Notes: generated by a model not told the origin, from the sequence alone. Counted from the whole stretch's first letter, positions 10,022-47,422 are shown. The stretch: DNA of 54,457 bases, filler included, from Sluysia triapertura (GCA_046118255.1; 4 parts of 4 records of this genome joined end to end with filler, not necessarily neighbours in it), one strand, 5' to 3'. Program-made: numbers and translations.

Positions 10022-10188
10022 GTAACTACCACTACCAGTGGGCACTGCATTAATTTACAAAGATAGTCAATGTCACCACTGATAGTGGTTCACATATCAA
10101 TCATCCAGCTTTTGATCTTTATTATTGGTCGTCCAACCAGATTTAGTCTCATTACTATTTTTATATTCCTCTGGTTGGACGGCCAATC
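10022..10188 (+). repeat. Paired inverted-repeat module (IR-A + IR-B)
   Basis: ACCACTACCAGTGG (10028-41) / CCACTGATAGTGGT (10076-89); ATTGGTCGTCCAACCAGA (10124-41) / TCTGGTTGGACGGCCAAT (10170-87), 28-nt spacer. Homologous to 36977-37142 and 47108-47422. Confidence 0.9.
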
Positions 10189-10281
10189 AGGTTGATAATT
10201 GTAATAAAATTATAATTATTTTAAAATTTTTTATTATTATTGCAAAAGGAGAATAACATTAGAAATAGCTATTTTACATCA

Positions 10282-10810
10282 ATGGATATTTCTATGTCTT
10301 CATAGAGTACTGGTTATGATTTTTCTGAAAGTCATGATTTCCATTTAAAATCATTATTAAACCATTATTCCATTCAAGATGATAATTACAAATTTAATGA
10401 TAATAAAGGTTACGACTGCAAAGTTGAAGATTATAAACATGATGATTATAAAGAGTATAATGGCATATCTAACAATTCTAAACTTAATGATTACAAAGTT
10501 GATGATTATAATTGCAAAACTAACGAATATAAAGATGATAATTATCAAACTAACAATGATGAAGATGATGATAGCGAAGTTAACAATAATAAAGATAATG
10601 CTTACGAACTAAATGTTTATAAAATTAATGATTACAAACTTAGCGATGATAAAAATAATCATTACGAATTTAACGATTATAAAAATGCTAATTTATCTGC
10701 AACTAGACAAATGTGATTTCCATTTGTATATTCTCTACCGACAACAATGGATATGCCTAATGCACGGAATATACTGCCGCTACGCACATTCCGTTTACGA
10801 ATTAGAATTT
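10282..10810 (+). pseudogene. Decayed ORF: N/D/Y/K-rich repeats followed by CCCH remnant (copy B)
   Basis: ATG at 10282 with an early stop. The frame from 10378 to ~10715 is open and repeats NDYK-like units. C-LMHGIY-C-RYA-H-SVYEL starts at 10754. Confidence 0.6.
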
Positions 10811-11599
10811 AACAAAGAAAGCGAAACAAATTAAAATCACCTTAAACACAGAATTGTATAATTACTCGAGAGTATTGGAGTTACCTCGTCCAATTCGACT
10901 GGCAATAGTTATAATGATCAATAACCATAAAGTAAACAATTTTTACATTCACATTCTTAGTATTATGAATTCTTATTTTTTAGATGCTGAAACAGATAAA
11001 AGAAAAGTCATACATAGGAGCCAAAATTTTAAATTAAAAATCATAACGAATACATTTTTATGCAATTTTCGTCGTCTTTTCATTATTCAAAAGTTAATTG
11101 TACAATTTAATTTTCAAAATTCAAAATAAATACTTCTAATCTTGTTTAATAATATTATTAGTAAATGTAAAACAAAATACAAATTAAATTTTAATTTTGA
11201 TATAAAAATAAATAAACATTATAAGTCACACATGCATAAGTCTTTTTAATAACGATGATCGCGATTCAGACGATCCAAATACAAATGACAATACGAACCT
11301 TTGAGGTAAATCTCTTTATTTTGAAATTTTTATTTAATCACCATAGGATTATCATTCAACGCATAGTTTATGGCTTACTAAAACATAAGTCAATTATCAT
11401 TTTTATCCTATAAATTAATGTACAATAATGTGTTGATCAATCTTGTTTATGTCATAATAAATAAACATATTAGATTTCACTTTGCGAATTTTTATTCTAA
11501 CCAAACAGTAGAGAGAATAAATAAAGTTGATAAATTATTAAATTTATTAACAAATTAATCGATAATATAATATTTAATAATGTAACATTTTGTAATCTC

Positions 11600-11822
11600 C
11601 CATATATGTGTGTTTCGAGTGTAATCGAATCATATGGCTTTAAATACCACATATATGCTGATGACGTGCAAATATATACTGAATTTGAAATGAACAACAT
11701 AGAAAATACAATTTAAAGAACAGAAGAACTAATATTTGAATTGATAAAATGGCTTGGAGATAAATACAATTGAAAATCAATGAAGATAAGACAGAATTTA
11801 TAATTATCAGTAATAAAAGTAG
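11600..11822 (+). mobile_element. L2/CR1-type LINE RT fragment, interrupted by an LTR
   Basis: YGFKYHIYADDVQIY (YADD at 11654), then W..(fs)..LKINEDKTEFIII. Confidence 0.8.
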
Positions 11823-12243
11823 TGTTAGGTCTGCCTTCACGACCCTTTAAGTTAACATAAAATGTTTTAAAATTATTTATAAGTGTCAAAAAACACCTAA
11901 AAAATATTAATTTTCCAAAAAAGAAATTTTATTTTCCAAAAGAAAAAGTTATTTTCTAAAAAAGAAAATAAAATTTCTAAAATAGAAATTAAGTTTCTAA
12001 AAATAGATTAGAAGCTTCTAGAATGTTCTAGAATATATTAGAACATTCCATCGACTTTCATTGGATGATGACTAGTATATAAATTAGCATCTTACAATGA
12101 AAATCGCCATTTAATTTTTCATTAAAATCGTCGCCATCTTACTTCAGCTCATTTGGTTTTCTACGCTTTTTGGAATTTTACATTCATTTGGACGCGAATT
12201 CAAATCTATTTTCACAAATCCATGCAAGGGTAAAATATTTTAT
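11823..12243 (+). mobile_element. HSE-containing LTR, copy 1 (truncated by contig end)
   Basis: Starts TGTTAGGTCTGCCTTCACGACCCT like the 51795 copy; the HSE-CCAAT-TATA core (~12010-12112) is near-identical to 51990-52092. Confidence 0.8.
12009..12083 (+). promoter_or_regulatory. Heat-shock element, inverted CCAAT and TATA box
   Basis: aGAAg cTTCt aGAAt gTTCt aGAAt aTATt aGAAc aTTCc = 7 of 8 alternating nGAAn pentamers; ATTGG at ~12060; TATATAAA at ~12076. Confidence 0.8.
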
Positions 12244-12343
12244 NNNNNNNNNNNNNNNNNNNNNNNNNNNNNNNNNNNNNNNNNNNNTTAATTAATTAAN
12301 NNNNNNNNNNNNNNNNNNNNNNNNNNNNNNNNNNNNNNNNNNN
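12244..12343. other. Artificial contig linker N44-TTAATTAATTAA-N44
   Basis: Same 100-bp construct occurs three times; the 12-mer has stops in all six frames. Confidence 0.97.
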
Positions 12344-12945: not shown

Positions 12946-14793
12946 AAGTGAAGTGCTCCGATTATACTGGATTACCGTCAAGGGAAGGAGAAAAGATCTA
13001 TTGACTCGATAATCAATTCTTTTTTCTTGTAATTCTTGACATATAATGTTAAATTTGAAATTATAAACTTATTTTCCGATTAAAACGTCAAAATGAAAAT
13101 TTACTGTGGCATCAAAATTTGTGCTGTGTCTTTAACCAAAATTATCAATGATAACTCAACAATTGGATTAACACGTAATCTAAATATATTTAAAATATCA
13201 CAAAAATGACAAATAATTGATTATTCTTTAATATCAATATACAAATTGAAAGTTATAAATCAATAAAAGACAAATCCAGAGGTGATACGAAAAATGTTGA
13301 CTCCCGCATTAAACTAAAATAAAATAATAAGAATGTGGATCACTAACTGCAATAATATTAGTACTCCTTATAAGGCTTCAAGGAGTAAATCTTCAAGCAC
13401 AATTTTTATCACAAATGTGTTGAGGCAGCTTTATTTTGTATTTCTTTTGATATTTCTTTTGTCAAGATATTGTTGTTCAAATTTTATTTCGAAAATACGA
13501 TAACTTATACAGTAGTTGGGTTATTGCTAAGAAGATTAAAAATGGGAAAATATAAGTAATTACTTCGTATTATTCATTCTTTTGAGTCTGTTTTAAGCCG
13601 ACCAATTTTAATAATTAAATTTCGACCATAATTTCTGTCGGCTTCCAATTTATTATCTCCTGCAATCTCATTATCTTTTTTAACATAATATAACCAGAAT
13701 TAAATATTATGCTTTTCAAATAATACATCAACTTAAAATAAAGATAAAAGTAATTACAAAACTATATTTATTTTCCATAAGAATTTTTAATGCAAACGAC
13801 ATACGTTAACCTTACTTTGCATATCGATTTCAATAACATGTCAGAATTGGTATCTTAGCGAGCATCAATTTAATATATACTTTAATTGTATTACAACATT
13901 TAAATTTAATTTTAGATTATAAAAATAATCAAAATAACTAATCTTTACGTTATCTGTGTCGGCGAGTTTCTTAATATTTCAATACTAGGAATACTAATAA
14001 AATTCAACATTATTTTACAGAAATTATTAAATTAAAGAATTTCTATTTAAATTAATCAATAAATGCGCTTTATATTTTAACAAGAAAAGGTACTGTTTTC
14101 GTACCTTTATTTCTTTTATTTTGTATATACATTTCATCAACGCAATTTGTCGTAGTGTTTTATCTTATGTTCTCATTAATTCTTATACTATAAGCTAAAA
14201 GTCCTTATATTCACTTCATCTTTAATCAAACCCAACAGTATGAATAATAATCTTATGCTGTAAAAATTGAGCCATCGCATTATTATTATTAATTATAATT
14301 ATTATCAACTTTATTTTGATATTATTATTTTCATAATTACCTTTTAATATTTTTGCAGACATTTTAAAATAATGTTTGATCATTTTCGGTCCTGACATCC
14401 TAATTATTTGAATTTGTTTGATTAAGTGGTAGAAAAAATTAGTGCATTAATCAATATAGTTCTTAGTTATTAGGTATCATAATCATGGTTCCTACTTTCA
14501 TCAACTTATTGTAACTAAAAATTCTGATACAAATTTTAAAATAATCTTTCTTAGTGGATTATCTTGATATGATACTGCAAGTATTCTTACCAAGTTAGAA
14601 CCTACTTACAAAAGATTGTTGTCTGGAGCTGAACTCGGCTGATTAGAAACGGTTTACGTCACTAGTCAACGACGGTGTAATCAGGCTTATAACGTGGCGA
14701 AGTAATACGCTTAACAAAGGAACTCCTAACAAAAATTTATATTAACTTGTATCAAAAACAAAATATTAGTAACAATACAAATTTAATAAATTG

Positions 14794-15097
14794 AGACAGC
14801 CTTTGTACGGTCTGTCAAATAGATAAATTATTTTTAAAAAATTGAATCGGCCTTTTTACGGTCTGATTATAGTTAATGAATGATTTTAGTTTAGAGAACA
14901 AATCGTAAGCAAAAGAATGTATATTAGATACAATGATGTATATACAATGACGTGCTATTATAAAAAAGGTTATACAATTCAACAAAAAATCGTTAAACAA
15001 TTATAATAATAGTAATAATAATAATACGGATTTTTCCTTAGCCTGAATTAGATTTTAAAATTAAAGTTAAGACAGCCTTTTTACGGTCTGTCAAATA
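14794..15097. repeat. Three copies of a short GACAGCC-TTTTTAC-GGTCTGTC hairpin
   Basis: AGACAGCCTTTGTACGGTCTGTCAAATA (14794), AATCGGCCTTTTTACGGTCTGATT (~14845), AGACAGCCTTTTTACGGTCTGTCAAATA (15070). Confidence 0.8.
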
Positions 15098-18000
15098 AAG
15101 ATATATATTAAGTCTGATTTTAAATCCTATCAATACAATTAGGATACTAAAAACTTAATGATTACAAAGTTACTTTTGCATGGAAACTGTTTTTGTCTAA
15201 TCCTTTTCTAAGATTTTAGATTCCTTATTTTCTTGTGTCTTGTAAGCTAAAAGTGTTTGTTATTTATATTAAAATTACTTACCTCCATATTTGTTTATTT
15301 TTTAATTTATTAAAACAATTTATTTCCTCTTTGGTTTAATAAAACAAAAGAATTTTCATATTATTAATTTATTTTATTTTATAATATTAATAATTATTTT
15401 ATAAATTATCAACATCATTATAATAAAAATAATTTTATAAAAACCAAAAATAAATAAATTAAATATTCAGATCATAAATAAATAAATTAAATATCCAAAT
15501 TATAAATATCAAGTTATCAATATAAATCAAATATCGTAATTTGCCAATTAAATATCACAATTAAGTCAATTGTTATTTTCAAGTCAAATATCATACACCA
15601 ATTGACACCAACACCAACAATACTGAATATGATTTGGTAATTTCGCGTTTACGTTTCCTTGGAAAGAAATATAATTGTAGATGGATTGAAAAAAGGTTAT
15701 TATTGCTTCATTTACGATTATGAGAATCATACAAAAATCTAATTAAAATTTGATTATAATACAATTATAAATATAAAATTATCTTATGTTGTTAACACTT
15801 TAATTATTATGCTCATTCGTAGAAATAGCGTGTCTGACAGTCACTAATCAAGTGTAATATGCAACAATGTATAAATAATAAATATTGGCACAACTATCTG
15901 GAACTCAATATACTTAATAAAAAGTATTAGTTTTGTAGGTAGATCATCTTTTATTAGTTGTAAAGTTTTTTCGGTGTTGATCTAATGTGTGATTCACGTG
16001 CAGAGTCTGATCTACAAAAAATAGTTTTAATAATTTTGTGATCTAAATTTAAAAAGTAATATTTCTATAAATGCATGAAATTTCAAATAAATGTTTAGGA
16101 TCACTGGAAACATGATTTATAGTGAAAGTATATTGTAATGCTACACTTAACATAGAACGTACTATAAACACATAGTTGTGCTTTCTGATAAGGGTTAGTC
16201 TGATTTTTTTATCTCGTCTTATCTAAAAATTTTCAAAACTGCATTTCATTTATTTGTCTTTCTCGTAGGTTGGAACGATAGCGGTACGTAATAAGCAAAT
16301 TTTATAGTCAAGATATTCATAATACGTTATATACGTTATATGTAAAAGATGGTGTTAGTGCTTCTGAAATCTCCTACAATTATAAAAATTAATTAAAACT
16401 TTAATTAAAAATAAACAATAATTAAGATAATTTTAAAATAAATAAAAAACAATTAAAAGACAATTAAACAAATTACAGAATAAACAAAATTCAATTAAAC
16501 AAATAGGAAATTCATTAAATTAAATTTATTATTTATTTTTGCAAGCAATAAAAAAGTAGTATATAAATTTTGCACAAGACAAAAACAAATCGGACAAAAT
16601 AACTATCAATTCCATACGAGTTATTATTAGTTCCATATGATTTGGCAATTATCATATTATTGTTGAAACAATACTCCATCTTTCTGTATTTGTAAGTTTA
16701 TTATTGATAAGGTTATTCTACTTTAGGGTAGAACCAAAATCAGCGTAAATTTTTAATTATTATCTACGATTAGTTTTAACTAAGTATAAAATTTATATTT
16801 GCAATAAATTATTTTATTGTAATAACACATTATTTTATTATTGAATTTAATTTGTTTTTGGTAATAAACCTTACCATCTTAGTCATTTTGATTTAAACTA
16901 GGTAAAAAAAGTTTTGAAAATAATTTTTAAAAGGTTTTGGTCTATCTGTACATACGTATCCCATTAGGTATAAAACGTATAGTATAGACGAACCCATTCT
17001 GATATTTTACTTAAATTAAGAAAATATTAATAGATATCAGAAAATAATCCAAAATCAAACATTAGACTATTACATATGATCTTTCAAAATCATAATGCAT
17101 TAAATTTGGTCGAAAAGTCTTTATAATTTTCTTGAAACATTTTTAAATGCTTTCTCAGTATCAAATGTAGTTAAATATTAGCAATTATGTGATAGATAGA
17201 TTGAATATCTGGTCGTTTCTAGATAAAAATAATAAATTACTGATTGATGTTCTATTAAAACTGAACATTTTAAGTAATTTTATTATATTTTATTTTAATA
17301 GGGACGTTTTAAAATGTAATTCAATTTTTAAACGTGCAGATCAAATAAATAATCAAAATTTTTTAATTAAATATTACGTAGTTTTTAAAGCAACTTTAAT
17401 ATTAATAAATACTTTTATCAACATAAATATTAATATATAATAAAGTATAAAATTTAAGCAAATGTATCTAATTTAAATTTATCATGGAATATCTATATTC
17501 TAATAAATCTTAATAAAAATTATATTTATGTATTATATTTATATATTTGAATTTTTCGTGCCTTATTTTGTATTTTCCAGTACGGCAAACCTAAAATATA
17601 TAATTACTGTGTATATTATAAAACTCAACAGTTATAATTACTATTTTATGGGTTCGCCTGTAATCCTGTGATTAATATCCCCATGGAAGACACGGTTTGC
17701 TGTCAGTTTACTACGTAAAGCGAGTCTTACAACGAAGCAAAAATATAAGTTTACTCGCTAAAAATTATGTAAATTACAAAATGATTGTTTATCTATTTTT
17801 TTTCGCTATGAACAAAACTAAGTTTTCTTAACAATATTAATTTGACTGTTACTCAATTTCAGTTTAATATTTTAATGACAAATGAAAAAATGTAAATCAT
17901 GACTAATTTTTTATTAAACAACCAATGTTTAATATAATATAGAAATATAAACACCAATTTTAATTCTGAAACTATGATTTAGACTTTTTATCGATTTTAA

Positions 18001-23791: not shown

Positions 23792-24360
23792 TGTAATGTT
23801 ATTTTTCGAAAAAAGAAAAAGAAAAGAAAATTTGCTTCTAAAAATAGAACATTCTAGAATATTCCACCGATTCCAATCGGCAGATGACTAGTACATAAAC
23901 TAATAATCGTTTTGCAGTTAGTTTGTAACAGTATTTCAATTTTCAAAATTGCTTGGAGTCATTCAGTCAAATCTTGTTTATTTTAATTATTAGTCCGCGA
24001 TATATTGAGGTGTAAACTCTTAAAGTTTTAATTTTAAATTATTTTCTTTTTTATCATCTTACGCTTTTATACTTAATTCTTGTTATTAACACATTTATTT
24101 ATTCATTTTGTAAAACAAAAAGTTATAGTCTTAGTTTCATTTTATTGAATAAACGTTTTACTAAGAGTTGTAAATTAAATTAATAAATTTTGAGACAATT
24201 AAATATATATATTTAATTTGTTAAATGAGCATTTAATGCGACCCTCATTGAGGAGTACTGCTATTTTGATAATGTATTACAAGAGCACCCTCTTTATGAC
24301 ATAATTGAACCCTTCTCAAAAGTATTTTGCCGTAGGTTAATTGTTAGAAAAACCACAGCA
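23792..24360 (+). mobile_element. HSE-containing solo LTR, copy 2 (569 bp)
   Basis: TGTAA...AAAACCACAGCA with TGTC duplicated (23788-91, 24361-64). AGAACATTCTAGAATATTCC, CCAAT and TACATAAA at ~23846-23899. GATATATTGAGG.GTAAA and the 3' end are shared with copy 3. Confidence 0.85.
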
Positions 24361-26957: not shown

Positions 26958-27057
26958 NNNNNNNNNNNNNNNNNNNNNNNNNNNNNNNNNNNNNNNNNNN
27001 NTTAATTAATTAANNNNNNNNNNNNNNNNNNNNNNNNNNNNNNNNNNNNNNNNNNNN
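26958..27057. other. Artificial contig linker
   Basis: N44-TTAATTAATTAA-N44. Confidence 0.97.
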
Positions 27058-27689
27058 ATGGTTATTAGCATTATTTGAATATTATTATGTTTATGATTTA
27101 TGAGATTTATGTTGTGCTTATGACTTGTTTGATGGAGTATTTAGTAAATAATTGTTATAAATTGTTTGGAATGAATGTAGTGGTTTATTGAGTTGGAATT
27201 GTTTGAGATATAGTTTGTTTTGTTTTTGAATATAAGTTGATGAAATGTTATAATTGTTGGAAAAATGTATTTTAATGAGATTTGGTTTGCAGCTGTTGTA
27301 TGTAAATTTTGCGTTATAAATGTTGACCACTACAGTACAAACGTTCCAAACAATACAATCATTAATCTAACAAATTTTAATCTATGTATTTTTCATGATT
27401 AAAATATTTTGTAATAAATTTATGTTTGTATCATGATGTTCTTAAAAAAAGAAACTAATCACGATTTATTAAAATTAAATTTATTTAATTTGATAAATAG
27501 TTTAAAGATAAATTTTAATTCAACTCTCATCAATTTTGATAAACTTAATGAAAATGTGAATCAAATAAAAACAACTATATTTCATTTACTTCCAAGCTTA
27601 TAACATGTGCTATAATATGCTATAATTCGTTTTCTCAAAAAATGAAACTATTAATCATAAAAAATAAGTATAATTTACAAATTTTTTAG

Positions 27690-28184: not shown

Positions 28185-28227
28185 GTTAGTTTATTAATAT
28201 ATTGATTTATTCAATTTCTTTTTACTA

Positions 28228-29478: not shown

Positions 29479-30000
29479 ATATTTGGTAGAATGGTTGATA
29501 TTTTATTATTAACTGGTGAAATAGAAGAATTTCTACAAAAAATTCTCTCAGAAGATAGTTGCTATTTCTTATTACCAAAGGATGATGATTATTTGGCATC
29601 GTTGCGATTATTATCGAAATCAGTCGATGCATTCTCATCAGATGGTAATAATGAGAATTGTTGTAAAACAATTTCCGGTGGTAACATTGAACATTCCCCA
29701 ATCGGTTTACATTTGCTCACTTTATTGTACAGCAAAATTCGTTTCCAATTAACATGCTGTTTCGATCAACATAATATCGTAACAAGATTACTTAAAATGA
29801 CTCACACTTTATTAAAATGTCTTTTTGTACCAGACAGTTTACAATCACAAACGTCAAATACCGTTCCCATTACTTCTACTTCTACTTCATCTACTGTGCC
29901 AAATGTTTATAATTTTATGTCTGAAAATATTAAAAATACAATTATCAAACATTTAACTCAATTGTGGTTAATTTTGGATCAATATCACCGTAATTCTGAA
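29479..30000 (+). CDS. HUWE1: HUWE1 exon (between UBA and WWE)
   Basis: aatttag acceptor, gtatgt donor, 174 codons, phase 0/0, in frame with both neighbours. Confidence 0.7.
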
Positions 30001-31616
30001 GTATGTTATTTATTTTCAATCATAGATATAAAATTCAAAAATTTAATGTAGATGAATGAGATGCATAAATTTAAGTCTCAAACTATAAAATATACTTTAG
30101 AACGAAGTTTAAATTAATAAGTCAAGCAGTGAAATAAATGAAGTAAAAGTAATATTCAAAGCTCAAAAAATCATTTAAACATTATTTAGTTATTATCACT
30201 AATAACATATTTTACTATCGTAGACAGTTTTTATCATGTTTTGAGATACAATTATGTCTGCATAATTGCATAATTATTCTTTATATTAATTATAGCTTAC
30301 GTTTATATTTTGTTTTAATCCCGAAGCATAACTACATAAGTTATATCAAATGTGATTATTATATCAGTTATTTATGTAAGGAATGTAACATTTTTCGATG
30401 GAATTTTAAACAATCAACTTGAGCCACGTACACTTTAATTTCATCTAAAATTGTTCTTTTACCTAAGTCACTTGCTGGATATTAAATATTTCATAATTTT
30501 TTAGCACCAATCAAATTTTGAGATTTTGTCTTAAAATAGACAGGTTTACTAAAATAATGAAAATATATCAAAACTCGTTGGATATTGTTATAATAATCAT
30601 ATAACAAGATAATTTTCCAAATTTTTCAGTATTTTAAGAACATCCTGTTTTGGATTATGAAAAATTAAATTATAAATGCACTTCAACTTGAAATTAATAA
30701 AATAAATATTTTGTTGAAAATTGTTGATCATTTTTCAAAACCACAAATAATGAAGTTTATTGCAATCAGGAGATAATAATTTGTTATTGCACTATATTCG
30801 ATATTAGAAACTTATTTTTACAAAATATCATGGACATGCTACGCATATCCTAAACAATACAATTTTTCTTGAAAGAAACATCATTATCCATAAAATTTTC
30901 ATTAATATTCTTTCTGTATTTAAATATTGAAGTTTATGGGATTTAATCAAATGATTTCCGATTCTTATTAAAAGTTAATTATGCTTATGCTTATGATTAT
31001 ATGGTATCATAAAACAGTATACGCATATAAGTTTTCATTTCGAACACATTAAATCACATTCAATATCTACCATCATATAACACCTAAATCACTTACTAAA
31101 TCCTATACTATTCTATAAAACATTCAATATAACTTACAAAATGTGTCGTCATCGTTATCATTATCAGTGCCATATTATTGCATAATTTGTTCACTTCCGT
31201 AGCTTGAGAAGAAAATCTTGTACCGCAGTCAATAGAAATTTTTCTTATGAAATAACTTTAAATGGCATTGGTTTTTTTAACTGCGAAAAAGTACTGCAAC
31301 ACCTTATCGAAAACTGATAAGGTAGACACGCCACACATTTTCAAAGCCTACTACTGATAAATGTATTTTATGTATTTACTACATATAAACCTTATTCATC
31401 AACATTATTTTTAAATTGATAAAATTTATTTTCCTTTTATTGCATGGTAAAGTCTACGTGCAAAATTGGAACTCATCGGTCACAAGTGATGAATTTACTT
31501 TCAGATCACCAAATGGACGTTATTTTAAGTTGAATAACGAAAATAGTCCTTGTAACATGGTTAAAGTTTATATGAACATATCAATTAAAAAGCGTTTCAA
31601 CTATTGTTATTTTTTT

Positions 31617-31669
31617 TCAACTTCTAGTTCTCTTTCAGGGTTTGGGTTCAAATCCCACTTCTAAGACCA
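31617..31669 (+). pseudogene. 3' half of a tRNA-Leu(CAA)-like sequence ending in CCA
   Basis: TCAACTTCTAG...GGGTTCAAATCCCACTTCTAAGACCA resembles tRNA-Leu TCAAGTTCTGG...GGGTTCGAATCCCACTTCTGACA(CCA); no recognisable D-arm. Confidence 0.55.
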
Positions 31670-32866
31670 TTTTAGTGACTTGTAGTCAGTGTTTTAAATC
31701 TTAATGTTACTAATTTTGTTGAAAAGATTGATGACGCCTTGATGATGTTGAAAATTATTCATTTGATTGTTTAATTTATAATTTTGAATTATTTCTCGAA
31801 TTTACATCATTTAATCTATAATAGTATTTAAGGCATTTTAAATTATTGTATGTTTAAGTATAAGATATTGTGTTGGATTTTCGAAACTTACATTTTGTAA
31901 CTTATTTTCAAACGTTAGAGAGTATTACATTCAAACATTCAACATTTTTTCTAATACTTTGTATTTTAAACATTTTCTAACCATAAAGAACATTACATTG
32001 TATTTTTTAAGAATCATTTATTATTTAATATCTGATTACCATTTCGATTATTTTCAAATATGTGATTAATGTATTTTCAATCACTTATAAACAAACATTT
32101 CATTAAGATAAAGTATAATATTATTCCTATTAGAGCATTATTAAATATGTCCAAACATTTGATTTATTCGGACATTCGATTGTAACAAGAATTTAAAGAG
32201 ATGTTAATTAAAGAATAGTTAATATTAACATTGAGTATTTTATTGCTTTACACTATCATTCAGTTTAACTCCCGCATTTATATTCAAATCGTGATGAACA
32301 AAACAATATAAAACATTAATATATTCGACCAGTTCATACAAAAATAATTTTTACTTGAGGTGTTACTATGCGATAGAAAAAATATCCCATCGTATAGTTA
32401 TGAATATCACGAATCATGCTGTTTTTTAAAGTTAGCAATGTTTATAAATGTTTATAGTTAATTCAAATTAATATTTGAATTTTTTTATCAATCATATATA
32501 AATAGTTAATTGTTAACAGGAAATTACTATTCGAATGTTACGAAATTTATAATATTAAATATAATATGCATATTATAACATTAAATATAATATGCATGTA
32601 ATATATTAAATGTTTTTTTATACGCCTATATGTAAATATTTTTAAAATACTTATACGAACTGTTTTTTATTTTTGAAACTAATCAATTTTATTAATAAAG
32701 TATTATTGAAATAATTTTCATTCTATATTAAGTAGGTTTAAAGCTTTGATACTTATTATGATATTTCCACAAAATAATAATCTGAGTTTATAGTATTTAC
32801 TTATAAGTCAACGAAAACACTTATAAATATGAAAAGTTCAATAAGTACTTATTACTTTATGTTTAG

Positions 32867-33127
32867 GCTCTGCGTCTTCGAAGAGATGTGATATTAGAAT
32901 ATCGAGGTAGCAATACGTGGTTTTGGTTAGATGAACATCGCGGTAGTTGGAATTCTTGTAGTTTATCAGTTATAAATCGTAACTATCGAGACGGACATTT
33001 TAAGTCAACTTTCAGGCTAGGTGGTCACCAGTATTCAGTAAATTTTATGACAATGATTAAGAAAAATGAAAATAGTTCCATAGAACATCCCGTGATGTTG
33101 TTGCCGTCATCATATCAACAACGAGAA
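32867..33127 (+). CDS. HUWE1: HUWE1 exon (WWE domain)
   Basis: WFWLDEHRGSW...FRLGGHQYSVNFMTMIKKNENSSIEHPVML matches the HUWE1 WWE (WRWFDDRSGRW...F.AG.R.Y.V.F.TM.Q.NE.....RPVML); 87 codons, phase 0/0. Confidence 0.85.
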
Positions 33128-34558
33128 GTTCGTTCATTAATGCTTTTCTTAAAAAAATTCAGCTAAATTAAAAAAGCGATATTTTTAATGTGCTTTTTGC
33201 TTAATCACATTTGAAGAATAATGTAATTTTGTAAATTTCTTAATTAATTTTTATTTTGATTAAAATTCAAATACAATTATCTAGTTAACGTCTTTGAACA
33301 TTACAATTGTTTTTAAAAATTTTTCTATTAAATAATTGTTAAAAATTAAAAATTAATTAACAAGATGTATTGATTTTTAAATTATTTTGTTTCGGCCAAG
33401 CCTAACTAATAAGGCGAAGGTTTTGGAGTTGATCGATTTTACTATTATAATATTATTGATTATCATTATTAAAATTGTTTGACATTGTTATTTTATTAAT
33501 TTTTTAATTATTACAAAATTATTATATTGTTATTTTGCATTATTGAGTCGTTATTACAGTCGCACTATTAACAAATGCATTTTACAATGGACATTATTTA
33601 AATAATTTTTATATTAGAGAATTTCAAAAATCATGTCAAATTAAAGTGACAAAAAATTTTTAATTTTCTAAAAAATTAGTTCATATATTTTACGGAAATA
33701 ATTTATACATTTAAACATATAAAATTCAAATGATGCAATAATTTGCTAGAAAATGTAATGAATTTTAACTTTTGCAACGCTATTTCCTATCACAATTTTG
33801 TTTATACCTATTTGGACCAAAAAGTGTTTATTTAGATTTAGGATGAACTGAAAAAAAGTCAAAAAATGAATTGAGAAAAAAATAATTAAACTTAGAAAAT
33901 AATTTCAAATTAAATGTTAAAAGAAACCGATTCATCGGACGAAGAAGAAACATAACTTACAGTGAAGGGAAAAAAATACATGATTGGAAAAGTTTTGAGT
34001 TTTTATTTCCTGGAAAAATAGCTGTCCGAGTTTAACTAAAACATCATTGTTAACTAAATAAAAAAAGAAGTAAAATTTATTCTTAAAATTGTAACAATTT
34101 ATTTATGCTAATATTTTTTTAATGAATTATTTTTTTACCTTATTTTAAATTTTAATGATTTATTCATATTAGCTAGTAAGTCAAACTGACTCAATAATTA
34201 AATTTTCTCAATCTCACCAATTTAATGAAATCATTTATGTTAAGGTCAAGTCAATGAATCATGATTATGAAATCGCATTTTCATATTATGATACTACATT
34301 GTAGCTTATACTTCAATTTAGTATTTATTTAATCATTATATTTTTTTATTAAAAAGTATCTACACTTTATCTTTAATAAACCTTTAACTATAAAACCTGT
34401 TTTCTTCAAGTACTACTCGAAAACTGAAGTATAGTGGAAATTGAAATATTCAATGATTTCGAATATATTAATAGGTTCGATAAATTTAATGTCACAAAAA
34501 TCTACTGATACAATGTTTATTTAAATAATATGTTCATTTGATATTTCTATTATTTCAG

Positions 34559-34963
34559 CTAGAGCAGCAGGCAGCATTAACACCCTATGAACACAGAATC
34601 TTACTTAACATACCAAAAGGTATCAATTATGACAAATGTCATTGCATTATCCATGATCTTATTTTATTTTTAACTCATATTGATCTTATTGATTCTGATC
34701 CATATTGGGAATGTGTACAAGCAGCCTGTTGCTTTCTCATACGGTTATGTAATCGTAATCAATGTACCAAACAAGTAACAACATCAACAACAGTTAAAAC
34801 GGAATTATCAAAAGAAGTACCGCAAATTACATATGAAATACCAAATATTAGTTCCTATTCATATCCTGATTTTCGGAAAGTCATACCAGCTTTATGTTGT
34901 TTGCCACATATGGAAAAGTATAGGTCTCATTTGATGACGTATATTATGATACTAATTAGACAA
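34559..34963 (+). CDS. HUWE1: HUWE1 exon
   Basis: atttcag acceptor, gttcgt donor, 135 codons; A...L.RL motif; ends ILIRQ, joining the next exon to give the HUWE1-like L.R...E....LRHT..K. Confidence 0.7.
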
Positions 34964-35869
34964 GTTCGTAGATTTTTTATTTCAATAATATTTCTTATTT
35001 ATATTGTTTATTTGAAACTCTGAAACAATAGTGCTTATAACTGATGATGTAAACTGTTTATTTAACGTTAATATGATATTATAATTTTTAATTTAAATCG
35101 TTTATGGGAATATCTTTTCTAAGTATTTATGTGCGATTTTAACACTTTGATATCTTGCATTTTTCAGACGTTCAAATTCAAAATCAAATCTTTTGCATTC
35201 ATATAAATTGTTTTCGTGAAATATTGATCACTTTTTGAAATGAATTTTTAGGAAAAAATTGAAAATTTCTTTTTATTTTAAGAATTTAAGTCGATTGCTT
35301 ACTGTATGTTTTAAATTTAAGGTAAAGCAATAAAAGAAATAAGCCATAGTCGAACAAGCTTTGCGATATTTAACAGGACTGGGCAAATTACATGCCTGCA
35401 TTATTTTTCTGTTTGAACGTATTTTCGGTTTATATTTGAAAAGCATTTTTGAATGTACGAGAATTATAAAATTTATAAATTTATGTTGCATTTCAATTCG
35501 TAATTTATTTTTTAAAATAAAAAATCAAAATTTATTAAGTTTTTTCAAAATTATGAAATATAAGGTTTGTTGATTGAGATTATTTGTGAACATTCCTTTT
35601 AAATTAATTAAAATGAATAAAAATTCACAAAAACTCCTTAATCTATTTACAATTAACACGATTATATTAAATAATTTTAAATTTTCCATAATATACCATT
35701 GCATACAGTTGCAGGTCCCAAGATCTAAATCAAAATACATAAATGATAACAATTCGTTGTAAAATTTATAATTATTACTTTATTTGATTCAGCGTCATTA
35801 ATTTCTCGCGTTGACTTTGTATTCGAGTAATTGTCGGTCTTGAGTTGTTATACTGGATAATAATGCTGG

Positions 35870-36911
35870 TTCCTGAAGTTGATTGATAGTATGCGCGAAT
35901 CTACACCTATTTCCAAATTTTAGGCATTGTCCATTCTGATGAGATCTGTAAGCGCAGAGTATGTGATACATATTGACAGCACGGGTAATGTTGATTTCGA
36001 GATTAAATTGCTAATTTGTACATTGTCATTATTTTGATCATCAGTGGTTGACTCGTGCACATAATTCACCACCATTCTGTCCTGCATTGATTTTTGTTTT
36101 AGCTTTTTAGATATAATTTCTTTTGAAACATCATAGATCTTTTCGTCGAAAATATGTGAATAAATATAATTGAGAATCTCATCAATTTTTTTAGCATATT
36201 TACGTACAGGTATTTCTATGGTTCATTGTTATAATCGTTGTTTGGTCTATCAATTTTAATCCATTTAAATTGAAAATCATATCGATATCGCAAAGTGAAT
36301 TAGACAAATTATCGAAGACATACTTAGTTGTAACACTATCATCTAACATTTCTTGACTTACCAAAACAGATCAATTACAGTCATTTGTGCACATTATTAT
36401 GCTGTCTTGTTAAAACTAGATAAACATTATCTTTAGATTTATCCATTTTTAATTTAAAACTGCCTTGCTTGCAAGGACTTATAGAATCTCTTAAATTGCT
36501 AAGCTGATATCTAGTAACTTAACCATCTCATCAGAAACCGAGCAATGAATACTCCCAAATTATGTTTGAGATTATAGCCTTCATAATTGATATTTTTAGT
36601 AAAATATTGCTTCTAATTTTCAGTACTAGAATCATTAATATCATGTTCTTGATCATTGTTATCTGAATTTAACAAAATATTTTCGTTTGGTGGACAGGTA
36701 ATTACCATTTTTGTTATATTTATATTTATAAATTTGACTATTTGAGAAATGTAGTTCACTGTTGAGAATCGTTTTACGAAACGTTTGTCTTTTATGAAGT
36801 CTAGATAATCTCTATACTTTATCGATTTAATCATAAATAGCTCGCCTTTGGTATCATCTCGTTTGTTTAAAGATAAAATATTAATAGCCATCAAATTTGT
36901 TTCTGTTTCAT
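35870..36911 (-). pseudogene. Decayed ORF ending in an intact Cx9Cx6Cx3H finger (copy C), in a HUWE1 intron
   Basis: YHIL-C-AYRSHQNGQ-C-LKFGNR-C-RFA-H-TINQL with Cys1 to His at 35956-35891. The upstream part (including ORF 36894-36613) is broken and unrecognised. Confidence 0.7.
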
Positions 36912-36976
36912 AACAATAATAATGCTATTTTTATTTAATTGTTAATTTCTACTGCTATTGTAATTGTAACGATTTT

Positions 36977-37142
36977 TGAGTGGCTGTCCAACCAGAAGTA
37001 TAAAAATGATGAAAGTGATCACTCTGGTTGGACAGATATTAGTAAGACAAAAATTAATAGAATTGACAGACAAGCCACTATCAATGGTGACGAGAATTCG
37101 TACATAGTAATCACTAATGTCATCATTGATAGTGGTAATTAC
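36977..37142 (-). repeat. Paired inverted-repeat module
   Basis: CTGTCCAACCAGA (36984-96) / TCTGGTTGGACAG (37023-35), 26-nt spacer; CCACTATCAATGGTGAC (37075-91) / GTCATCATTGATAGTGG (37119-35), 27-nt spacer. Confidence 0.9.
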
Positions 37143-37790
37143 TGGTTAAGTGATAGAAATAAAAATTAAAAGTAATGAAAGAATAAAAATAATAATAATA
37201 ACAATGCTATTATTATTGTTATAAATACATAAATTTTTTCTACTTAAAAGAACACGATCGTTCTTTATATTCTTGACATATTAGAAGTTACGGGAATTAA
37301 AGAATTGTGATGTTATATATATATATATGCCACTAAAGCTTTGTTAATTTTAAACGAAGTAATGAAAAATTTAAAATATTTTAACGTACGCACTTGCGTT
37401 ATATAAATTAATATAGTATATAATATGACATAATGTCCATATAAATATTAAAAAATGATTGTTATTAATTACCAGTAGTCTTTGGGTTATTTGAACATTG
37501 AGTTACATGACTGTCATTTTTGTGCATTATTAATATTATATATTCGTATTTAAATCCCCAAAGCACAAATAACTCAATGATATTAATATGTGCGAAATTG
37601 TGCTACCATAATACTACGTTCTAATACCTGATTAGATTCTATTTCGACCTCACTTTCAATTTTGACATAGGTGTCATTGTTTTCTCACATATAATAATAT
37701 TATTATTATTAATTATAATTATAATCATTATTATATTTGTATAAATTTTGTACTAAATATGAAAATACAAATTATTTTTTATTTATTCAG

Positions 37791-38132
37791 CAATTCGAAA
37801 CCGATAAACTAATCCGTCATACAATAAGTAAAATATTAGACAAAGATATTTCTCGACTTAATGCCAACGATAAAAAGAACAGTGATCTATTTTATTTTGT
37901 ATGGGAAAATATTCCCCTTTTATGTCGTTCATTTGATAATACAGTAGATTTAATATTGGATAAATTAGAACTAACACAATCACCAGATTCTTTGACTACA
38001 TATCGTTGTGTAAAATCTAAAAAAGAATCAAACCTTACCAATGTTGCCAATCGTTATCCACCACTAGAAATGCTACAAATAGCTATTGTGCGTTATTTAG
38101 TCGAAAATGCTTTGTTTCATTTTATTGAAAAG
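37791..38132 (+). CDS. HUWE1: HUWE1 exon
   Basis: ttattcag acceptor, AG|gtttgt donor, 114 codons, phase 0/0; begins QFETDKLIRHTISKIL. Confidence 0.7.
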
Positions 38133-39949
38133 GTTTGTATCATATTTAAATTGAACATTGATATAGTAAAGTTAATAATTGTATTATTTTGTAAAACTTT
38201 CGTAAAATTAAATGTGATCATAATGAATCAAAATTTTGTAAATTTTGAAAATAATTTTAAAACTAAATCAAATCTGGCATCATAGACTAGAATTTTCCCT
38301 AGTACGTAACCGCGCAAACTTATTCAAACTAGTGAACATTTGTTATCGAAGTTGAATTTGTGACAATATTTTTTTGAATATTAAATTGTTTACTGTACTT
38401 TTTCTAAATTCAATAGTCTGCATATAATGGTAGGAAAGTTTTGTGACTCACCTTATCTTATTAAATTTATGAATCAATATTTTAAAATTTTCAATAAAGT
38501 ATAAATTGTTTTATTTAATGAGATTTTGAGATTGTTTTGATTTTAATGGTTCCTTAATTTGTAGTTTTGTTATTGACGAAACATATTTAAATCGTCTTGC
38601 TTTAAAAAAATTTGGCGATCCTAAGATCGAGGTCATTTTCGAATAGAGAATACAAAGTTTGTATTAAAGTGGTTATTGTTCACTAGACGAATGTCAAATT
38701 AGTCCACTATTTTATAAAATAAATGTAAGTGAAGTTATCAACATCTAGTGAACGGTATTGTCATAGAATTGATCTCGTTATTGTGCCATTTTCTTTGACG
38801 TTTTATTTGCGTATCATTATTATTGTCGTTTATGGTGCTATTAATTTATCAATATTAATGTTATTGTTATTGACATTATTGTGACTAATGTGTTTCTCAT
38901 GTTTATTTCGTCGAAAGGTATTCAAACCCTTTTATATCAATAAGCATACGTCCAATTTGGCATTATTTATGTTACAAGTCTGTAATTAAATTAATAACTT
39001 AATTTAAAGACAATTACTCTTTTAATACTTTAATATATTTAACACTTTTCTGTTACGTTTTTAAAACTACTTATTGCTTAACAATTTAAAACTAAGTACA
39101 AGCAATTAAAAGTGGCCTAAAATGCGATTCACATCAATATAAATACAGTTTAGCTTGTAATTAACATTTATACTTGAATAATATTTTGTAATAAAGATGT
39201 ATATAGATATGCAACTTTTATTGACACCTATCTAGTGTGGACTGAAATAATTGTAAAAACATGTTTATCCATTAAATATTTATCTTATACTCATACAAGT
39301 GACCTTAGTAGTCGTGGGTTAAAAGATCAATAGATTAAAACTTACTTTTCCTTCAATGAAGTTGGTTATCTTAAGTGAAATTTTGAAATGTGTGTTAATC
39401 TTAACAATATTAATGTTTTCTTTCGATAACAGAATATTTAATTTATAATACAATTTCTTCATATCTTCCGATTTAAAGCTAAATTTAATATTGTTTTTAA
39501 ATAATTAATGTTTACACGAATAAGCCTTTTAATAAATTGTAGTTTTTAAGTTTGATAATAACGAGTCATAAAGACTAATATGAACAATCGATAAATCTTT
39601 GAACATACATTTGGCTAATTTTGATTATTATTACGTTTTAATATTTATGTTTTATGAATGTTTTCTTAAATTTTGCAAATAGTATGATCTTGTATAATTG
39701 TATGATTTCTCTAAAATTATGAAATAACTATATTTAGAATGGTAAAATATTCTAAGTATTCTATGTAAAATGAGAATATTCAAATTTTACGCTTATTTAA
39801 TTGTGTTAATATGTTCACTGCCAATGCATCATATATGAATAATGAATGTGAATACTGAAATAATGAAAAAGCTGCACAGACTTCATATTACAAAAGTAAT
39901 CATTATATAGAAAAGTAATTCCAAAAGAATAAATCCATATGCTGAAGTA

Positions 39950-41961: not shown

Positions 41962-42061
41962 NNNNNNNNNNNNNNNNNNNNNNNNNNNNNNNNNNNNNNN
42001 NNNNNTTAATTAATTAANNNNNNNNNNNNNNNNNNNNNNNNNNNNNNNNNNNNNNNNNNNN
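41962..42061. other. Artificial contig linker
   Basis: N44-TTAATTAATTAA-N44. Confidence 0.97.
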
Positions 42062-42716
42062 TACTTCTACTTCTACTATTACGACTACCACTACTGCTGT
42101 AAGCATGAAATTCACAACATCGGCATTTTATCGAGGGATTTGACTGTCTGAATCTTGTTCCGATCTCTGTCAATGATTATTTACATCCAAATTGTACAGT
42201 GTGCTGGATAGGTTGAACTTGAGATATTCATTACACACTTTTAGTGGTAAAAATTTTTTTGTTATAGTTTTTCCAGGATTTATCTTTCTGATGTGAATAT
42301 GTGCCTGTCAGGTCTGTATAGAGCCATTCAATTTGTCCTTAAAGACAAAGATGATTTTAAATTTTATATTTCCTCATACCATTGTGACTCTAGTTAATTT
42401 AACAAGCTTTCCCTCGTCAATTTCAGATAATTCACTCTAGACCTAGTTCTAAACATCTGGACGGCATCAGCTTGTTACTATGTGTATGTATTATTTTCAC
42501 ATAAATCAACTCAAAAATCATATCTAATAAGTGCCCTAAGTGCAACTTAATTTACTGTTCGAGTGAGAAATGTGTTAATTTCAAAGTAAATATTAAATAA
42601 ATTATGCGAAAAGATTATTGAAGTAGTGCTGATAAAATATTAATGTGGTATTATCACTACTACTATTATTATTATTACTACTATTTAAAAATAAGTAACA
42701 TATTCACTGTGTGCAG

Positions 42717-43025
42717 GTATGTTTGTGGGTGCACTATGTGCAGTAACTGGGGTACTAACTATTTCGCTTCCTGTTCCGGTAATTGTGTCGAATTTTTCTA
42801 TGTTTTATTCGCACACGCAAGCTCGCAGCAAGTTGCCTAAGAAACGAAGGCGAGTGTTACCAGTTGAAGCCGTGCGTCCCAAATTAAAGTTGGCGGCTGC
42901 AGCAACAGCCAATCACAGTCGACTTGTTATTAGTCACAGTCCTCAGAGATTGTCCAATCATCAAACGGCCTTGGGTGTTACAGAAAGGCTTTTGTCCAAT
43001 TACAAGAGTCCTGCTATCATAACTG
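42717..43025 (+). CDS. Shaw: Shaw/Kv3 voltage-gated K+ channel exon (S6 and proximal C-terminus)
   Basis: [51 protein letters not shown]. tgcag acceptor; either a G|gttaga donor after 43025 or read-through to the TAG ending at 43030. Confidence 0.92.
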
Positions 43026-44165: not shown

Positions 44166-44280
44166 CATCATTATCATCATATTTTTATTCTTCATCATCA
44201 TTGTCATCATAATCACCATCATCATCATTATCATCATATTTTTAGTCTTCATCATCATTGTCATCATCATCACTATCACC
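44166..44280. repeat. CAT-rich 57-bp tandem duplication
   Basis: CATCATTATCATCATATTTTTA.TCTTCATCATCATTGTCATCAT at 44166 and 44223. Confidence 0.85.
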
Positions 44281-45617
44281 ACTTTCATATCTTTTTGATC
44301 TTATTATTACTTAAACTTACCCTGATCAAAGAATGAGTTATGTTATGAGTTCGCTTACGATTCTAGTCTTACAAGAAGTGGCTTGGTATGATTTTAAAAG
44401 AATCTATTTCTTTCATGCAAGTTCCAAGGTTATTTTGAGGAATGCATTGAAAATTAAAGAATGGTTCCGCCTTAGGCGAGTTTAATAAAATTTAACTTAC
44501 ATAATAATAGGATTGTTTTCCGCTTTATAGCGAGATTATTAATAAAAAGTTAAACTGAACCGTTGAAAAGCTTCATTTTATAGTTCGGTATTATGCACGA
44601 AATGTTTAGAATGTTTTTAATGTGTTGAAGCCGTGTAATTTAGATTTTGATAGTACTTTCGATTCAAATCAAAGGGATCGATAAAATGTAAATCACAAAT
44701 TTAAGACAAAAAATTATATTATGATAACCTAACAGAAATTTAAGACAACGTAACTTATTTAGAAGCAATAATTAAAAAAATTTAATAAATTAAATGTGCA
44801 GTTTACTGAATTATTATTATTAATTTTAATCGGATTTTGAAAGATGAATGGAAACAAATACAAAACTAACGCGTACCGAAGTAAAAATGATCTCTGTAGA
44901 AATAGCCGATGAAAAAGTCTTTTGTTTTTTCTTCGGATATATCGATATTAGAATCTCTTTTATTAATTTACTTCTAGACAATTGCTTTCTAACTTTAAGA
45001 AAACAACTCAGAAATTTTATACTTACCAATAGTTGATTTTCTGTGGCTGTTGATACTCCTTCTTCAAAATTTATTTTATGACTAATAAAAAGAACATTAA
45101 AATTTGTCTAAAATATCAATAAGAATTTTCTTTTAACCTATTAATGTTTTTATTTTTGAATAATTTATAAATAATTTAAAATAATTTATTTTATGATATT
45201 TTATTAATGTGATTATGAGTTGATTGCTTTTAGAAGATTTTATTTGATTTTAAAACTTGGTAGTGTAAAATTACTTTTTATTAAATGTAAGCAAAATGAT
45301 AAAATGGGAAGTTTGCAGACAGTAAATGAGAATCTGTAGATAAAATAATATTTTATTTATTAAATCGAATTTAAAAAATTCAATGTTTATAAAGTTCGGT
45401 TTGTATATATTGTTTTCTGACAGCCACGTTTCACTATCTGAAAAAGAATCAAAAGTCAAGTATCTTTAATGTAATCGTAAAAAATATTTACCCTATTATT
45501 ACCATTAGTACTGTTGTTATCAAGCATTTCCGGAGTTGGTACACCGATGCTTACGAATAAATCTGAGAGTCTAACGAGATGATCCGTTCGGAAAGCACAG
45601 TTGACTTTATAGTCCAG

Positions 45618-45712
45618 CAATTGATTAACAGTGTGTACATGCACGCATTTAGTTCCGAAGTTTGTACATTCGCATCTTAGTAAACTGTATAAGGACAAAG
45701 TACTGGTTTATT
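45618..45712 (-). pseudogene. CCCH remnant (copy D) downstream of the primase fragment
   Basis: KPVLCPY..(1-nt loss)..EC-TNFGTK-C-VHV-H-TVNQL; first Cys to His spans 65 nt vs 66 nt in copy C. Confidence 0.7.
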
Positions 45713-46319
45713 TGCGACGAACTGAATTAACAGTAACCGATCAAACGGGCATTAAATTCTTGAACATATTATTTGCGTTTTGTTCATTAGGGGAATCGGT
45801 ATAATGATATACTGAGCACTTCTCCAAGCCATTTTTATCTTTATTGTCCTTGTTTAACTCAGATGAGTTAATTGGTGGGGCTTTATTTGGCATTCACTTT
45901 ACTCTTAAATTCATTGTCAGAATCTCAAAAAGTTTAATCTTTTCTATATTCAAGACACAATTTTATTTAGCTATTGCAGCGGCTGCAAAAACTCTCTTAT
46001 ATAGTTTAGAGTAATCATGAATATACTAGTAACTATTGGAGGGAACTTCAAATTTTGATTTAGATCACTCATATTAATACGACTCATTATATCTCTTCTT
46101 ATTCGAAAACTCAGCATCTTTTGAATCATCTCAAATTTATCTTTACTATTTTCAATTAATTCTGTACGAGTTCGCATCATGAATTCATAAAGGGCATCTT
46201 CTTTTAAATTTTCGGGTAATCTTTTAACTTCTAAAGTTGAATGACATTGAGAAAATATTCCAATAGAGTTGTTAAAGCTTAATCTAGTTTTGTTACTGAC
46301 ACTGGTGATGAGAATGAAT

Positions 46320-47007
46320 TAGGTAAAATATCCAAAATATATTTGATTCTTCCAGGATTTTCTAGCATTTTTTAAAAGCAAATCTTTTAAAATTATTTGT
46401 AAATATCGCTATACTAGCTCTTAACATCTTTCCATTTATTATTTATTTTAATTCTATTTTGCCTTGTTTATAACGACTTATAAAACCAACCAGATTACTA
46501 CACTAATTGACATAATAACTTTACCACATCATCAAAAGCCTCTTCTTCCAGAAAACACCCACCAAATATGTTTGAAATCAAAGTCTTCAGTTAGAATACG
46601 ATGCAGTTATTCCTGCAGTTATCAAAGTCTAACTATTTTTTTTACAAACATCTGCCTTTGAGCAACAATTTCGAAAATCATCATAATCTTTTATGTGAAT
46701 AGCAAACACTAAATCTTTAGAAACCGGCTGAAGTAAATAAGACAAATGATTTATTGGTATTGGGAGGCATGATAAAAATGATACCAATGTCAATTTTATA
46801 CGGATTCTTTTTAATCAACTCGGTTTTTAATTCATTTGCATTACGAAACGACAAATAACATACATAAATATTATCCTTCAATGTAAAACTAAATTCTCGT
46901 TTAGCAAAATTCTCCTCATTATTTTTAGATAACCATTTAAAAAATAATTGATATGGAAATACATTAACATAAATATTTCTTAAATTTGCTTTAAATTCTA
47001 ATGTCAT
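46320..47007 (-). pseudogene. PRIM1: DNA primase small (catalytic) subunit, intronless decayed copy of the N-terminal part
   Basis: FPYQLFFKWL...FAKREFSFTLKDNIY.Y.SF....LK.E...KNPYKIDIG, then across stops and frameshifts KDLVF.I..DYDDFRNCCSKADVC and L.EDF.FKH.WWVFSGRRG. Confidence 0.92.
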
Positions 47008-47107
47008 ATATATATATATATATATATTGTCTTTAAAAACATTTTTGGTTTCTAAATATGCTATTAATAAAAATGAATTTAATAGGTTAATTACTATTCT
47101 GACTGTC

Positions 47108-47422
47108 CAGATTGGTTGTTCAACCAGAGTGATGCAAATAATGAAAAGAGCTACTCTGGTTGGTCAACCATTAATACACTGAAAAATGTCTCACATGGAG
47201 AAGCCAACCATTATCTATTATGACAAGAATTTATACATGAAATGATTAAGTGTGTAATGAACTGTCATCAGTCGACAGTTAGTAAAAGAACACCTTATTG
47301 ATTTCGACTGATGGTAGGTTAACAGCAATTAAATTTTTGTGCGCTATAAATACAGCTACCATCAGTGGTGACAATAATTGTAATTGTGAATTAATGGTGT
47401 CTCCACTGGTAGTGGTAGTTAC
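47108..47422 (-). repeat. Paired inverted-repeat module with an extra IR pair
   Basis: TGGTTGTTCAACCAGAGT (47113-30) / ACTCTGGTTGGTCAACCA (47153-70); CATCAGTCGA (47266-75) / TCGACTGATG (47304-13), 28-nt spacer; CCATCAGTGGTGACA / TGTCTCCACTGGTAG (~47359-47412). Lies ~100 bp upstream of the primase ATG. Confidence 0.9.

Follow-up and report, generated by a model that had tools for sequence, protein, structure and literature searches.

Relation to described gene-capturing elements

Gene capture, hairpin ends and the lack of a target-site duplication are traits of Helitrons (PMC11417382, PMC4067079), among which those of Fusarium are reported to have repeated 5′ termini (PMC5148889), and the sites of tyrosine recombinases consist of 11-13-bp arms around a 6-8-bp spacer (PMC3212892), as set out in the available portions of these sources. 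The 54,457-nt stretch of the flatworm Sluysia triapertura (GCA_046118255.1) analysed here, hereafter the window, contains paired inverted repeats. They form the conserved 5′ module shared by a dispersed family of decayed gene cassettes that carry a CCCH finger. Linkers of 44 N, a 12-base spacer and a further 44 N (12244-12343, 26958-27057 and 41962-42061) connect the four contigs of the window, and three homologous modules are present, each on a different contig: M1 (10022-10190, plus strand), M2 (36977-37142, minus strand) and M3 (47107-47422, minus strand). A further segment, M0 (near 6100-6720, plus strand), is probably a more decayed fourth homologous copy.

The family resembles non-autonomous Helitron2/Helentron elements (HINE, DINE-1; PMC4067079, PMC5148889, PMC11417382) in its asymmetric hairpin-rich end, duplicated 5′ termini, gene capture and AT-rich surroundings, and its palindromic arms recall the palindromic subterminal repeats of HINE-Mo. 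Unlike the Helitron2/Helentron elements described in the accessible text of those reports, none of the four copies carries a 12-16-nt subterminal inverted repeat at both ends, and no 3′ stem-loop was found in them; the two inverted repeats of the module instead lie at one end, with spacers of 26-28 nt, and the body is a predicted spliced CCCH gene. The modules do possess the 5′ hairpin or palindrome typical of Helitron2/Helentron, but with loops much longer than in the examples described there. With the Helitron group HLE1 (PMC11417382, PMC4067079) the family shares one-ended conservation, the lack of terminal inverted repeats and captured gene pieces amplified together with upstream DNA, but a 3′ hairpin with CTRR was found in none of the four copies, the 5′ TC of HLE1, which inserts between A and T, could not be placed at a 5′ boundary located only roughly, and stacked inverted repeats with long spacers are not among the HLE1 features given in the available portions of those reports.

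Dispersed multiple copies with host-gene cargo in chimeric reading frames are also found in Pack-TIR and Pack-MULE elements, and Pack-TIRs are described as carrying host genes in animals (PMC8277862, in the part available). One could accordingly read the module as the left end, either a terminal inverted repeat or a subterminal array, of a cut-and-paste Pack-TIR of the MULE, CACTA or Foldback-like type that has lost its right end to decay, and the sequence CACTA begins the first inverted repeat, IR-A, in 3/3 copies M1-M3. The bases flanking this CACTA are conserved, however, and belong to the arm, as a variable target-site duplication would not. Unlike in Pack-TIRs (MULE, CACTA, hAT), terminal inverted repeats do not flank the cargo: none was found in any of the four copies, nor was a copy of either arm or a 12-mer inverted match of at least 19 bits at their 3′ sides, and no target-site duplication was found around ends that are themselves undefined. 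A decayed Pack-TIR is therefore a very unlikely source of the module.

Crypton elements (PMC3212892) likewise lack terminal inverted repeats and have symmetric sites, but the spacers of the modules far exceed the 6-8 bp given in the available part of that source, and the hint of a recombinase comes from one weak Atlas match alone. The suggestion in the initial annotation that the arms might be recombination sites was not upheld for sites of the classical kind, given this spacer length and the lack of a partner site at the 3′ end. Because the end tests for HLE1 and HLE2 were negative, terminal repeats like those of Pack-TIRs were not found and the spacing differs from that of tyrosine-recombinase sites, the family is assigned to none of the Helitron, Helentron, Pack-TIR and tyrosine-recombinase classes, although it resembles a gene-carrying non-autonomous Helitron/Helentron.

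Anatomy of the 5′ module

The order of parts is common to M1, M2 and M3: an AT-rich (AAT)n/(ATT)n palindrome, then IR-A, then a second inverted repeat, IR-B. In M1 the AT-rich leader (9888-10021, plus strand) includes a perfect (AAT)n/(ATT)n palindrome at 9942-9978 and is followed by IR-A at 10028-10089 (arms 10028-10045 and 10072-10089) and IR-B at 10124-10187 (arms 10124-10141 and 10170-10187). The corresponding parts of M2 on the minus strand are the leader at 37143-37274 (palindrome 37188-37220), IR-A at 37074-37136 (arms 37119-37136 and 37074-37091) and IR-B at 36979-37040 (arms 37023-37040 and 36979-36996), and those of M3, also on the minus strand, are the leader at 47423-47510 (palindrome at about 47466-47498), IR-A at 47355-47416 (arms 47399-47416 and 47355-47372) and IR-B at 47111-47172 (arms 47155-47172 and 47111-47128). 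The homology of M1 and M2 begins about 135 nt before IR-A (roughly 9888 and 37274), some 50 nt beyond the AT tract.

With arms of 18 bp, alignments give spacers of 26, 27 and 26 nt for IR-A and 28, 26 and 26 nt for IR-B in M1, M2 and M3 respectively, all within 26-28 nt, in agreement with the initial annotation, which had located these repeats correctly and described their spacers as near-fixed. The word that it quoted at 37081 is the reverse complement of the M2 right arm, since M2 and M3 lie on the minus strand. The distance from the axis of the AT palindrome to the start of IR-A is 68, 68 and 69 nt, and the arm centres are separated by 44, 45 and 44 in IR-A and by 46, 44 and 44 in IR-B. IR-A is 52 from IR-B in M1 and 51 in M2; M3 has about 150 nt more (47207-47354, minus strand), consisting of further IR-A-like arms whose orientation alternates (47307-47317; 47304-47313, which pairs with 47266-47275; a degenerate arm at 47207-47226). 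M3 has two additional inverted-repeat pairs, with spacers of 38 and 28 nt. Each arm is roughly palindromic in itself, and IR-B ends in CCAAT in M1 and M3 and in CCACT in M2.

Conservation of the arms

The inverted repeats greatly exceed chance expectation. When those with spacers of 18-45 nt were compared with 30 block-wise dinucleotide shuffles, the window contained nine of at least 20 bits against a shuffle mean of 0.37, and five of at least 24 bits against a mean of 0.07; seven of the nine lie inside the modules and the remaining two in a separate repeat family. Folding of the three modules as DNA gave z-scores of -5.58, -6.62 and -3.28.

The initial annotation had proposed that the arms differ between copies yet stay complementary. 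The two double changes that it quoted exist, and there is a third (IR-A columns 17/59, G:C to A:T; IR-B columns 11/62; IR-B columns 10/63), but the proposal was overstated: among 36 pair columns, 21 are invariant, 3 changed on both sides, 1 became a wobble through a one-sided change, and variation in the other 11 always breaks the pair, and the observed number of double changes, from three sequences only, was matched by 170/500 and 123/500 shuffles. The few double changes could stem from copying of one arm onto the other. Between copies the arms are 78-85% identical and the spacers 53-54%, consistent with the poorly conserved spacer and the constraint on the module that had been noted; the covariation expected alongside them did not reach significance. 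Between the two readings left side by side there, structure or symmetric protein sites, the latter are preferred over pure structure because the arms conserve their sequence instead of covarying. As far as an alignment of three copies, too few to settle the matter, can indicate, the data favour conserved symmetric sequence over compensatory structure.

The same pairs bear on the proposal that the stems act in RNA, either in the 5′ region of a transcript, perhaps bound by its own CCCH finger, or as stem-loops at the 3′ side of an antisense retroposon whose tail is (AAT)n. Unkempt fingers bind RNA, the folding is strong, and among 108 pair cells (91 Watson-Crick, 6 other mismatches) the 11 transition-type departures are unevenly divided, 9 of them being G-U only when the strand opposite the gene is read and 2 when the gene strand itself is read. 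This bias falls to about 7 to 2 once shared departures are merged, however, and is then not significant. Covariation does not reach significance, the homology of M1 and M2 runs past the AT tract, a predicted intron is retained, and no Rfam family or ribozyme overlaps the modules; an Rfam scan to E 5 for a hammerhead ribozyme of the retrozyme or Penelope-like kind gave 4 matches, none in the modules, with the caveat that minimal ribozymes can escape Rfam. A role of the stems in RNA is highly doubtful on these grounds.

The cassette gene behind the module

M1, M2 and M3 share a layout downstream of the module, comprising a start codon, variable cargo, a homologous CCCH finger, a segment bounded by GT and AG and a short last exon, and the gene is broken in every copy. 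The ATG follows IR-B at about 95, 89 and 104 nt, and the cargo behind it differs in each case, as expected from the initial annotation, which had placed the module just 5′ of variable cargo. The presence of the same CCCH gene tail at the end of every cargo is new here. The GT-AG segment occupies the same place in all three copies (52-54 nt) and is followed by a frame of 15-17 codons ending in TAA; it is predicted to be an intron.

In M1 (plus strand) the cargo at 10282-10716 starts with the ATG at 10282, contains one in-frame stop and continues as a D/N/K/Y-rich reading frame of 15/30-nt repeats, followed in a different frame by a decayed finger core at 10751-10807 (zf-CCCH_UNK E 0.068, below the cut-off) and by a predicted 52-nt intron (10932-10983) with a 17-codon last exon (10932-11037 together). 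In M2 (minus strand) the cargo at 35930-36891 starts with the ATG at 36891 and has several stops and frameshifts, and its N-terminus is without a recognised match, an Atlas search giving scores of at most 0.80. The finger core of M2 at 35873-35929 matches zf-CCCH_UNK with E 7.2e-7 and 29.5 bits against a cut-off of 31.1, and is followed by a predicted 54-nt intron (35725-35778) and a 15-codon last exon (35677-35778 together); an early Roquin-like label for this region was dropped after the Pfam and PDB comparisons of the fingers.

The cargo of M3 (45672-47007, minus strand, ATG at 47007) includes a match to the eukaryotic primase small subunit (PriS) at 46535-46998, continues as unassigned decayed reading frames, and is followed by a decayed finger core at 45615-45671, which alone has no Pfam match, and by a predicted 54-nt intron (45438-45491) with a 16-codon last exon (45387-45491 together). 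M1 carries its D/N/K/Y-rich low-complexity repeats in place of the primase piece. In M2, a 155-nt piece (36429-36583) is 66% identical to 46426-46589 of M3, its first 55 nt or so falling inside the primase match of M3, and further colinear patches are shared by the two cargoes. Downstream of M3, a (CAT)n-rich 57-nt repeat is duplicated at 44166-44278, and its minus strand has an Asp-rich frame similar in make-up to the M1 cargo.

The PriS match of M3 (E 3e-18 to human PriS) corresponds to residues 20-167 of mollusc PriS and is intronless, running across three frames. The DxD motif of primase is catalytic, and here it reads AxH; the captured primase is dead and is not the engine of the element. 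Primase-derived sequence in two copies, together with an AT-rich tract and evenly spaced symmetric sites like the anatomy of an origin, agrees with a possible replicon, excisable or virus-like, that would integrate in the flatworm genome and use the arms as its replication origin or as sites for recombination or resolution. An ESM Atlas search with a 115-aa frame of M3 also returned core-binding, ALOG and integrase-SAM-like clusters at 0.93-0.94. Its recognition score of 2147 lies below the 2300 mark, however, just 104-139 of 256 features are shared, and Pfam and PDB returned nothing for the same frame. The primase is of the cellular type and has lost its DxD motif, spacers of 26-28 nt do not suit tyrosine-recombinase sites (PMC3212892, in the part available), and scans of viral and metagenome contigs yielded no relative, leaving a replicon of this kind distinctly unlikely.

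The four finger cores, those of M0-M3, are 54%, 58% and 33% identical at first, second and third codon positions (38/114 at the third) of 114, figures biased by the choice of the core by amino-acid likeness. The mere 33% identity at third positions is consistent with old lineages, in which arms and finger look constrained. This coding pattern of conservation, the fixed distance to the ATG, roughly palindromic arms that keep sequence and not pairing, and the CCAAT at the IR-B end of M1 and M3 (CCACT in M2) are also consistent with a pure promoter, that is, an array of symmetric transcription-factor sites before a fast-evolving, Unkempt-derived CCCH family of host genes, most of whose members became pseudogenes and which segmental or transposon-assisted duplication had spread. 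A host gene family would not usually have three to four dead copies within 54 kb, located on different contigs and with swapped cargo, however, and mirror arms of 18 bp are longer than usual factor sites. Protein searches with the finger found no close relatives, returning only generic multi-finger CCCH proteins (39 matches, of which 8 were examined further) and none in a second search. The promoter explanation is regarded as conceivable, though somewhat unlikely.

The probable fourth copy

M0 consists of an AT-rich tract at 6120-6215, a degenerate IR-B at about 6370-6447 and, at 6571-6717, an Unkempt-type CCCH finger with one in-frame stop, the best kept of the four (all plus strand). Its module scored 15.4 bits against a null maximum of 12.0, and 27.3 against a maximum of 21.6 in 40 shuffles, and was missed by covariance models. 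The finger matches zf-CCCH_UNK (Pfam PF25427) above the Pfam cut-off (E 2.1e-10), and finger and upstream linker match residues 81-123 of mouse-type Unkempt (PDB 5elh, E 0.0013). Unlike Unkempt, the family has a single finger without the rest of the protein, fused to unrelated cargo and broken in every copy in the window. Part of an IR-B arm of M0 recurs as a 12-nt near-direct repeat (6414-6425 and 6822-6833, plus strand) on either side of the finger gene; this repeat is absent from M1-M3 and of borderline significance.

Possible mode of spread

The preferred explanation, held tentatively with a probability of roughly 0.45, is that a protein recognises the module as the left end of a gene-capturing, non-autonomous DNA element, of which it is also the promoter, and that rolling-circle (Helitron-like) machinery would move this element in trans. 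The arms would be symmetric binding sites for a sequence-specific protein, able to fold back once a strand is peeled off, and the mobilising enzyme would be encoded elsewhere. The unit would spread as DNA, because it keeps upstream sequence and the predicted intron, and the entry point of cargo would lie behind the start codon and ahead of the finger, with an mRNA-derived copy as the probable source of the intronless PriS piece. This explanation agrees with the dispersal of the copies, one-ended conservation, swapped cargo, a geometry fixed within a few bases and the internal multiplication of IR-A arms in M3. For the 3′ tails of M1 and M3, the alignment extends across the predicted intron and scores 26.1, whereas shuffles reach at most 21.3.

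Several results weigh against a rolling-circle element. The 3′ tails of M1 and M2 (19.0 against 20.0) and of M2 and M3 (18.3 against 24.6) do not rise above shuffles, and in all four copies a search of the 3′ flank and of the sequence past the AT tract found no hairpin (stem of at least 6 pairs) followed by CTRR, although old copies may have lost such ends. Neither a subterminal repeat at the 3′ side nor, the 3′ end being undefined, a stem-loop shared there, like the short one that accompanies T-T insertion in Helitron2/Helentron elements, was found among the copies, and no Rep/helicase (RepHel) was recognised among 28 open reading frames scanned with Pfam out of 73 listed. The intron of the cassettes is a prediction only, and none was recognised in M0. 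The fixed distance of the module before the ATG is equally promoter-like, and the apparent conservation is inflated because pairing served to delimit the arms and amino-acid likeness the finger core. The mRNA origin proposed for the PriS piece presupposes introns in the host's own PRIM1 gene, such as animal PRIM1 genes normally contain.

A bolder explanation envisages a new mobile replicon of parasitic flatworms with a stacked-hairpin origin-and-promoter, a spliced cassette, an Unkempt-derived finger that would bind the element's own RNA or single-stranded DNA, and repeated uptake of mRNA-derived host genes as N-terminal fusions, including a primase once used for second-strand synthesis. Such a replicon is speculative and quite unlikely.

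A second dispersed repeat family (11965-12112, 51944-52092 and 23819-23902, plus strand; the first two 85% identical) was rejected as the 3′ end because it follows M1 only. It holds an array of nGAAn/nTTCn words, which we take to resemble heat-shock elements, as well as a TATA-like box lying in an inverted repeat of its own, and could represent the end of a heat-responsive transposon. Blocks of 300-500 nt that are poor in G and rich in C and A are present at 6860-7390 (plus strand), 47520-48060 and 27058-27330 (both minus strand); the first two align over about 150 nt (score 45 against 20 in shuffles), one following M0 and the other preceding M3. Head-to-tail arrays are not claimed, as a G-poor block follows none of M1-M3 and the similar block at 27058 is without a module.

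Searches for relatives and significance

A pattern scan of viral contigs found IR-B alone at 6 loci and IR-A at none, and one of metagenomes found 12 loci, none of these holding the module (best profile E 0.18); in three distinct viral loci the IR-B covariance model scored nothing beyond the word used to select them. A primase scan of the viral contigs gave one match of 25 residues with a stop. Of the words sampled for a search of public sequencing runs, a fraction of 0.63 is present in one run, and no RNA run containing them was listed. Rfam, tRNA and sigma-70 scans returned nothing for the modules, the last being unsuited to a eukaryote. A literature search, outside which lay repeat databases including Repbase and most subscription papers, found no description of the element, and no such family is listed in the available part of a Schistosoma mansoni review. 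The repeat family that the cassettes form is apparently undescribed; its end module is unusual and its RNA-binding finger captured.

If three to four copies per 54 kb holds genome-wide, this would be a major undescribed flatworm repeat family spreading a promoter-plus-gene cassette, and host coding sequence shuffled onto an RNA-binding finger would, if borne out, be a route to new chimeric genes. The end structure fits no Helitron, Pack-TIR or Crypton definition tested, so its mobiliser could widen a known transposon class. Because all copies in the window are dead and the mechanism is one that we infer, the present value of the family is limited.

Genomic setting of the copies

At about 25% GC, the window includes exons of animal genes (kelch, FYVE, WWE, tropomyosin and a potassium channel). 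Among these, the kelch exon shares 78-79% identity with its best matches in cestodes and trematodes, 62-70% with proteins of Schistosoma and 60% with Cichlidogyrus, which places the host among the neodermatan flatworms. Two long plus-strand frames that resemble exons of one host gene flank M2, which is antisense to them. The exon-like frames around it (27690-38285, plus strand) have weak UBA and clear WWE matches suggesting a HUWE1-like gene; a location of M2 inside a HUWE1 intron was checked and not confirmed. On the potassium-channel exon, an Rfam K_chan_RES match at 42678-42793 (plus strand), barely over the gathering score, probably reflects coding similarity.

Other repeats accompany the cassettes. 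A broken Tc1/mariner-type transposase remnant (HTH_38 and weak Tc3 matches) is present at 2787-3408 (plus strand), and a reading frame with a YADD motif at about 11560-11800 (plus strand), spotted by eye between M1 and the second repeat family, is probably a reverse-transcriptase remnant of a long interspersed nuclear element. Two tRNA-like copies at 4331-4484 and 7392-7549 (minus strand), 76% identical and with shared flanks, are likely to be a tRNA-derived short interspersed nuclear element. A short GC-richer word of about 30-40 nt, partly palindromic, occurs in three copies at 14788-14865 and 15064-15104 (plus strand).

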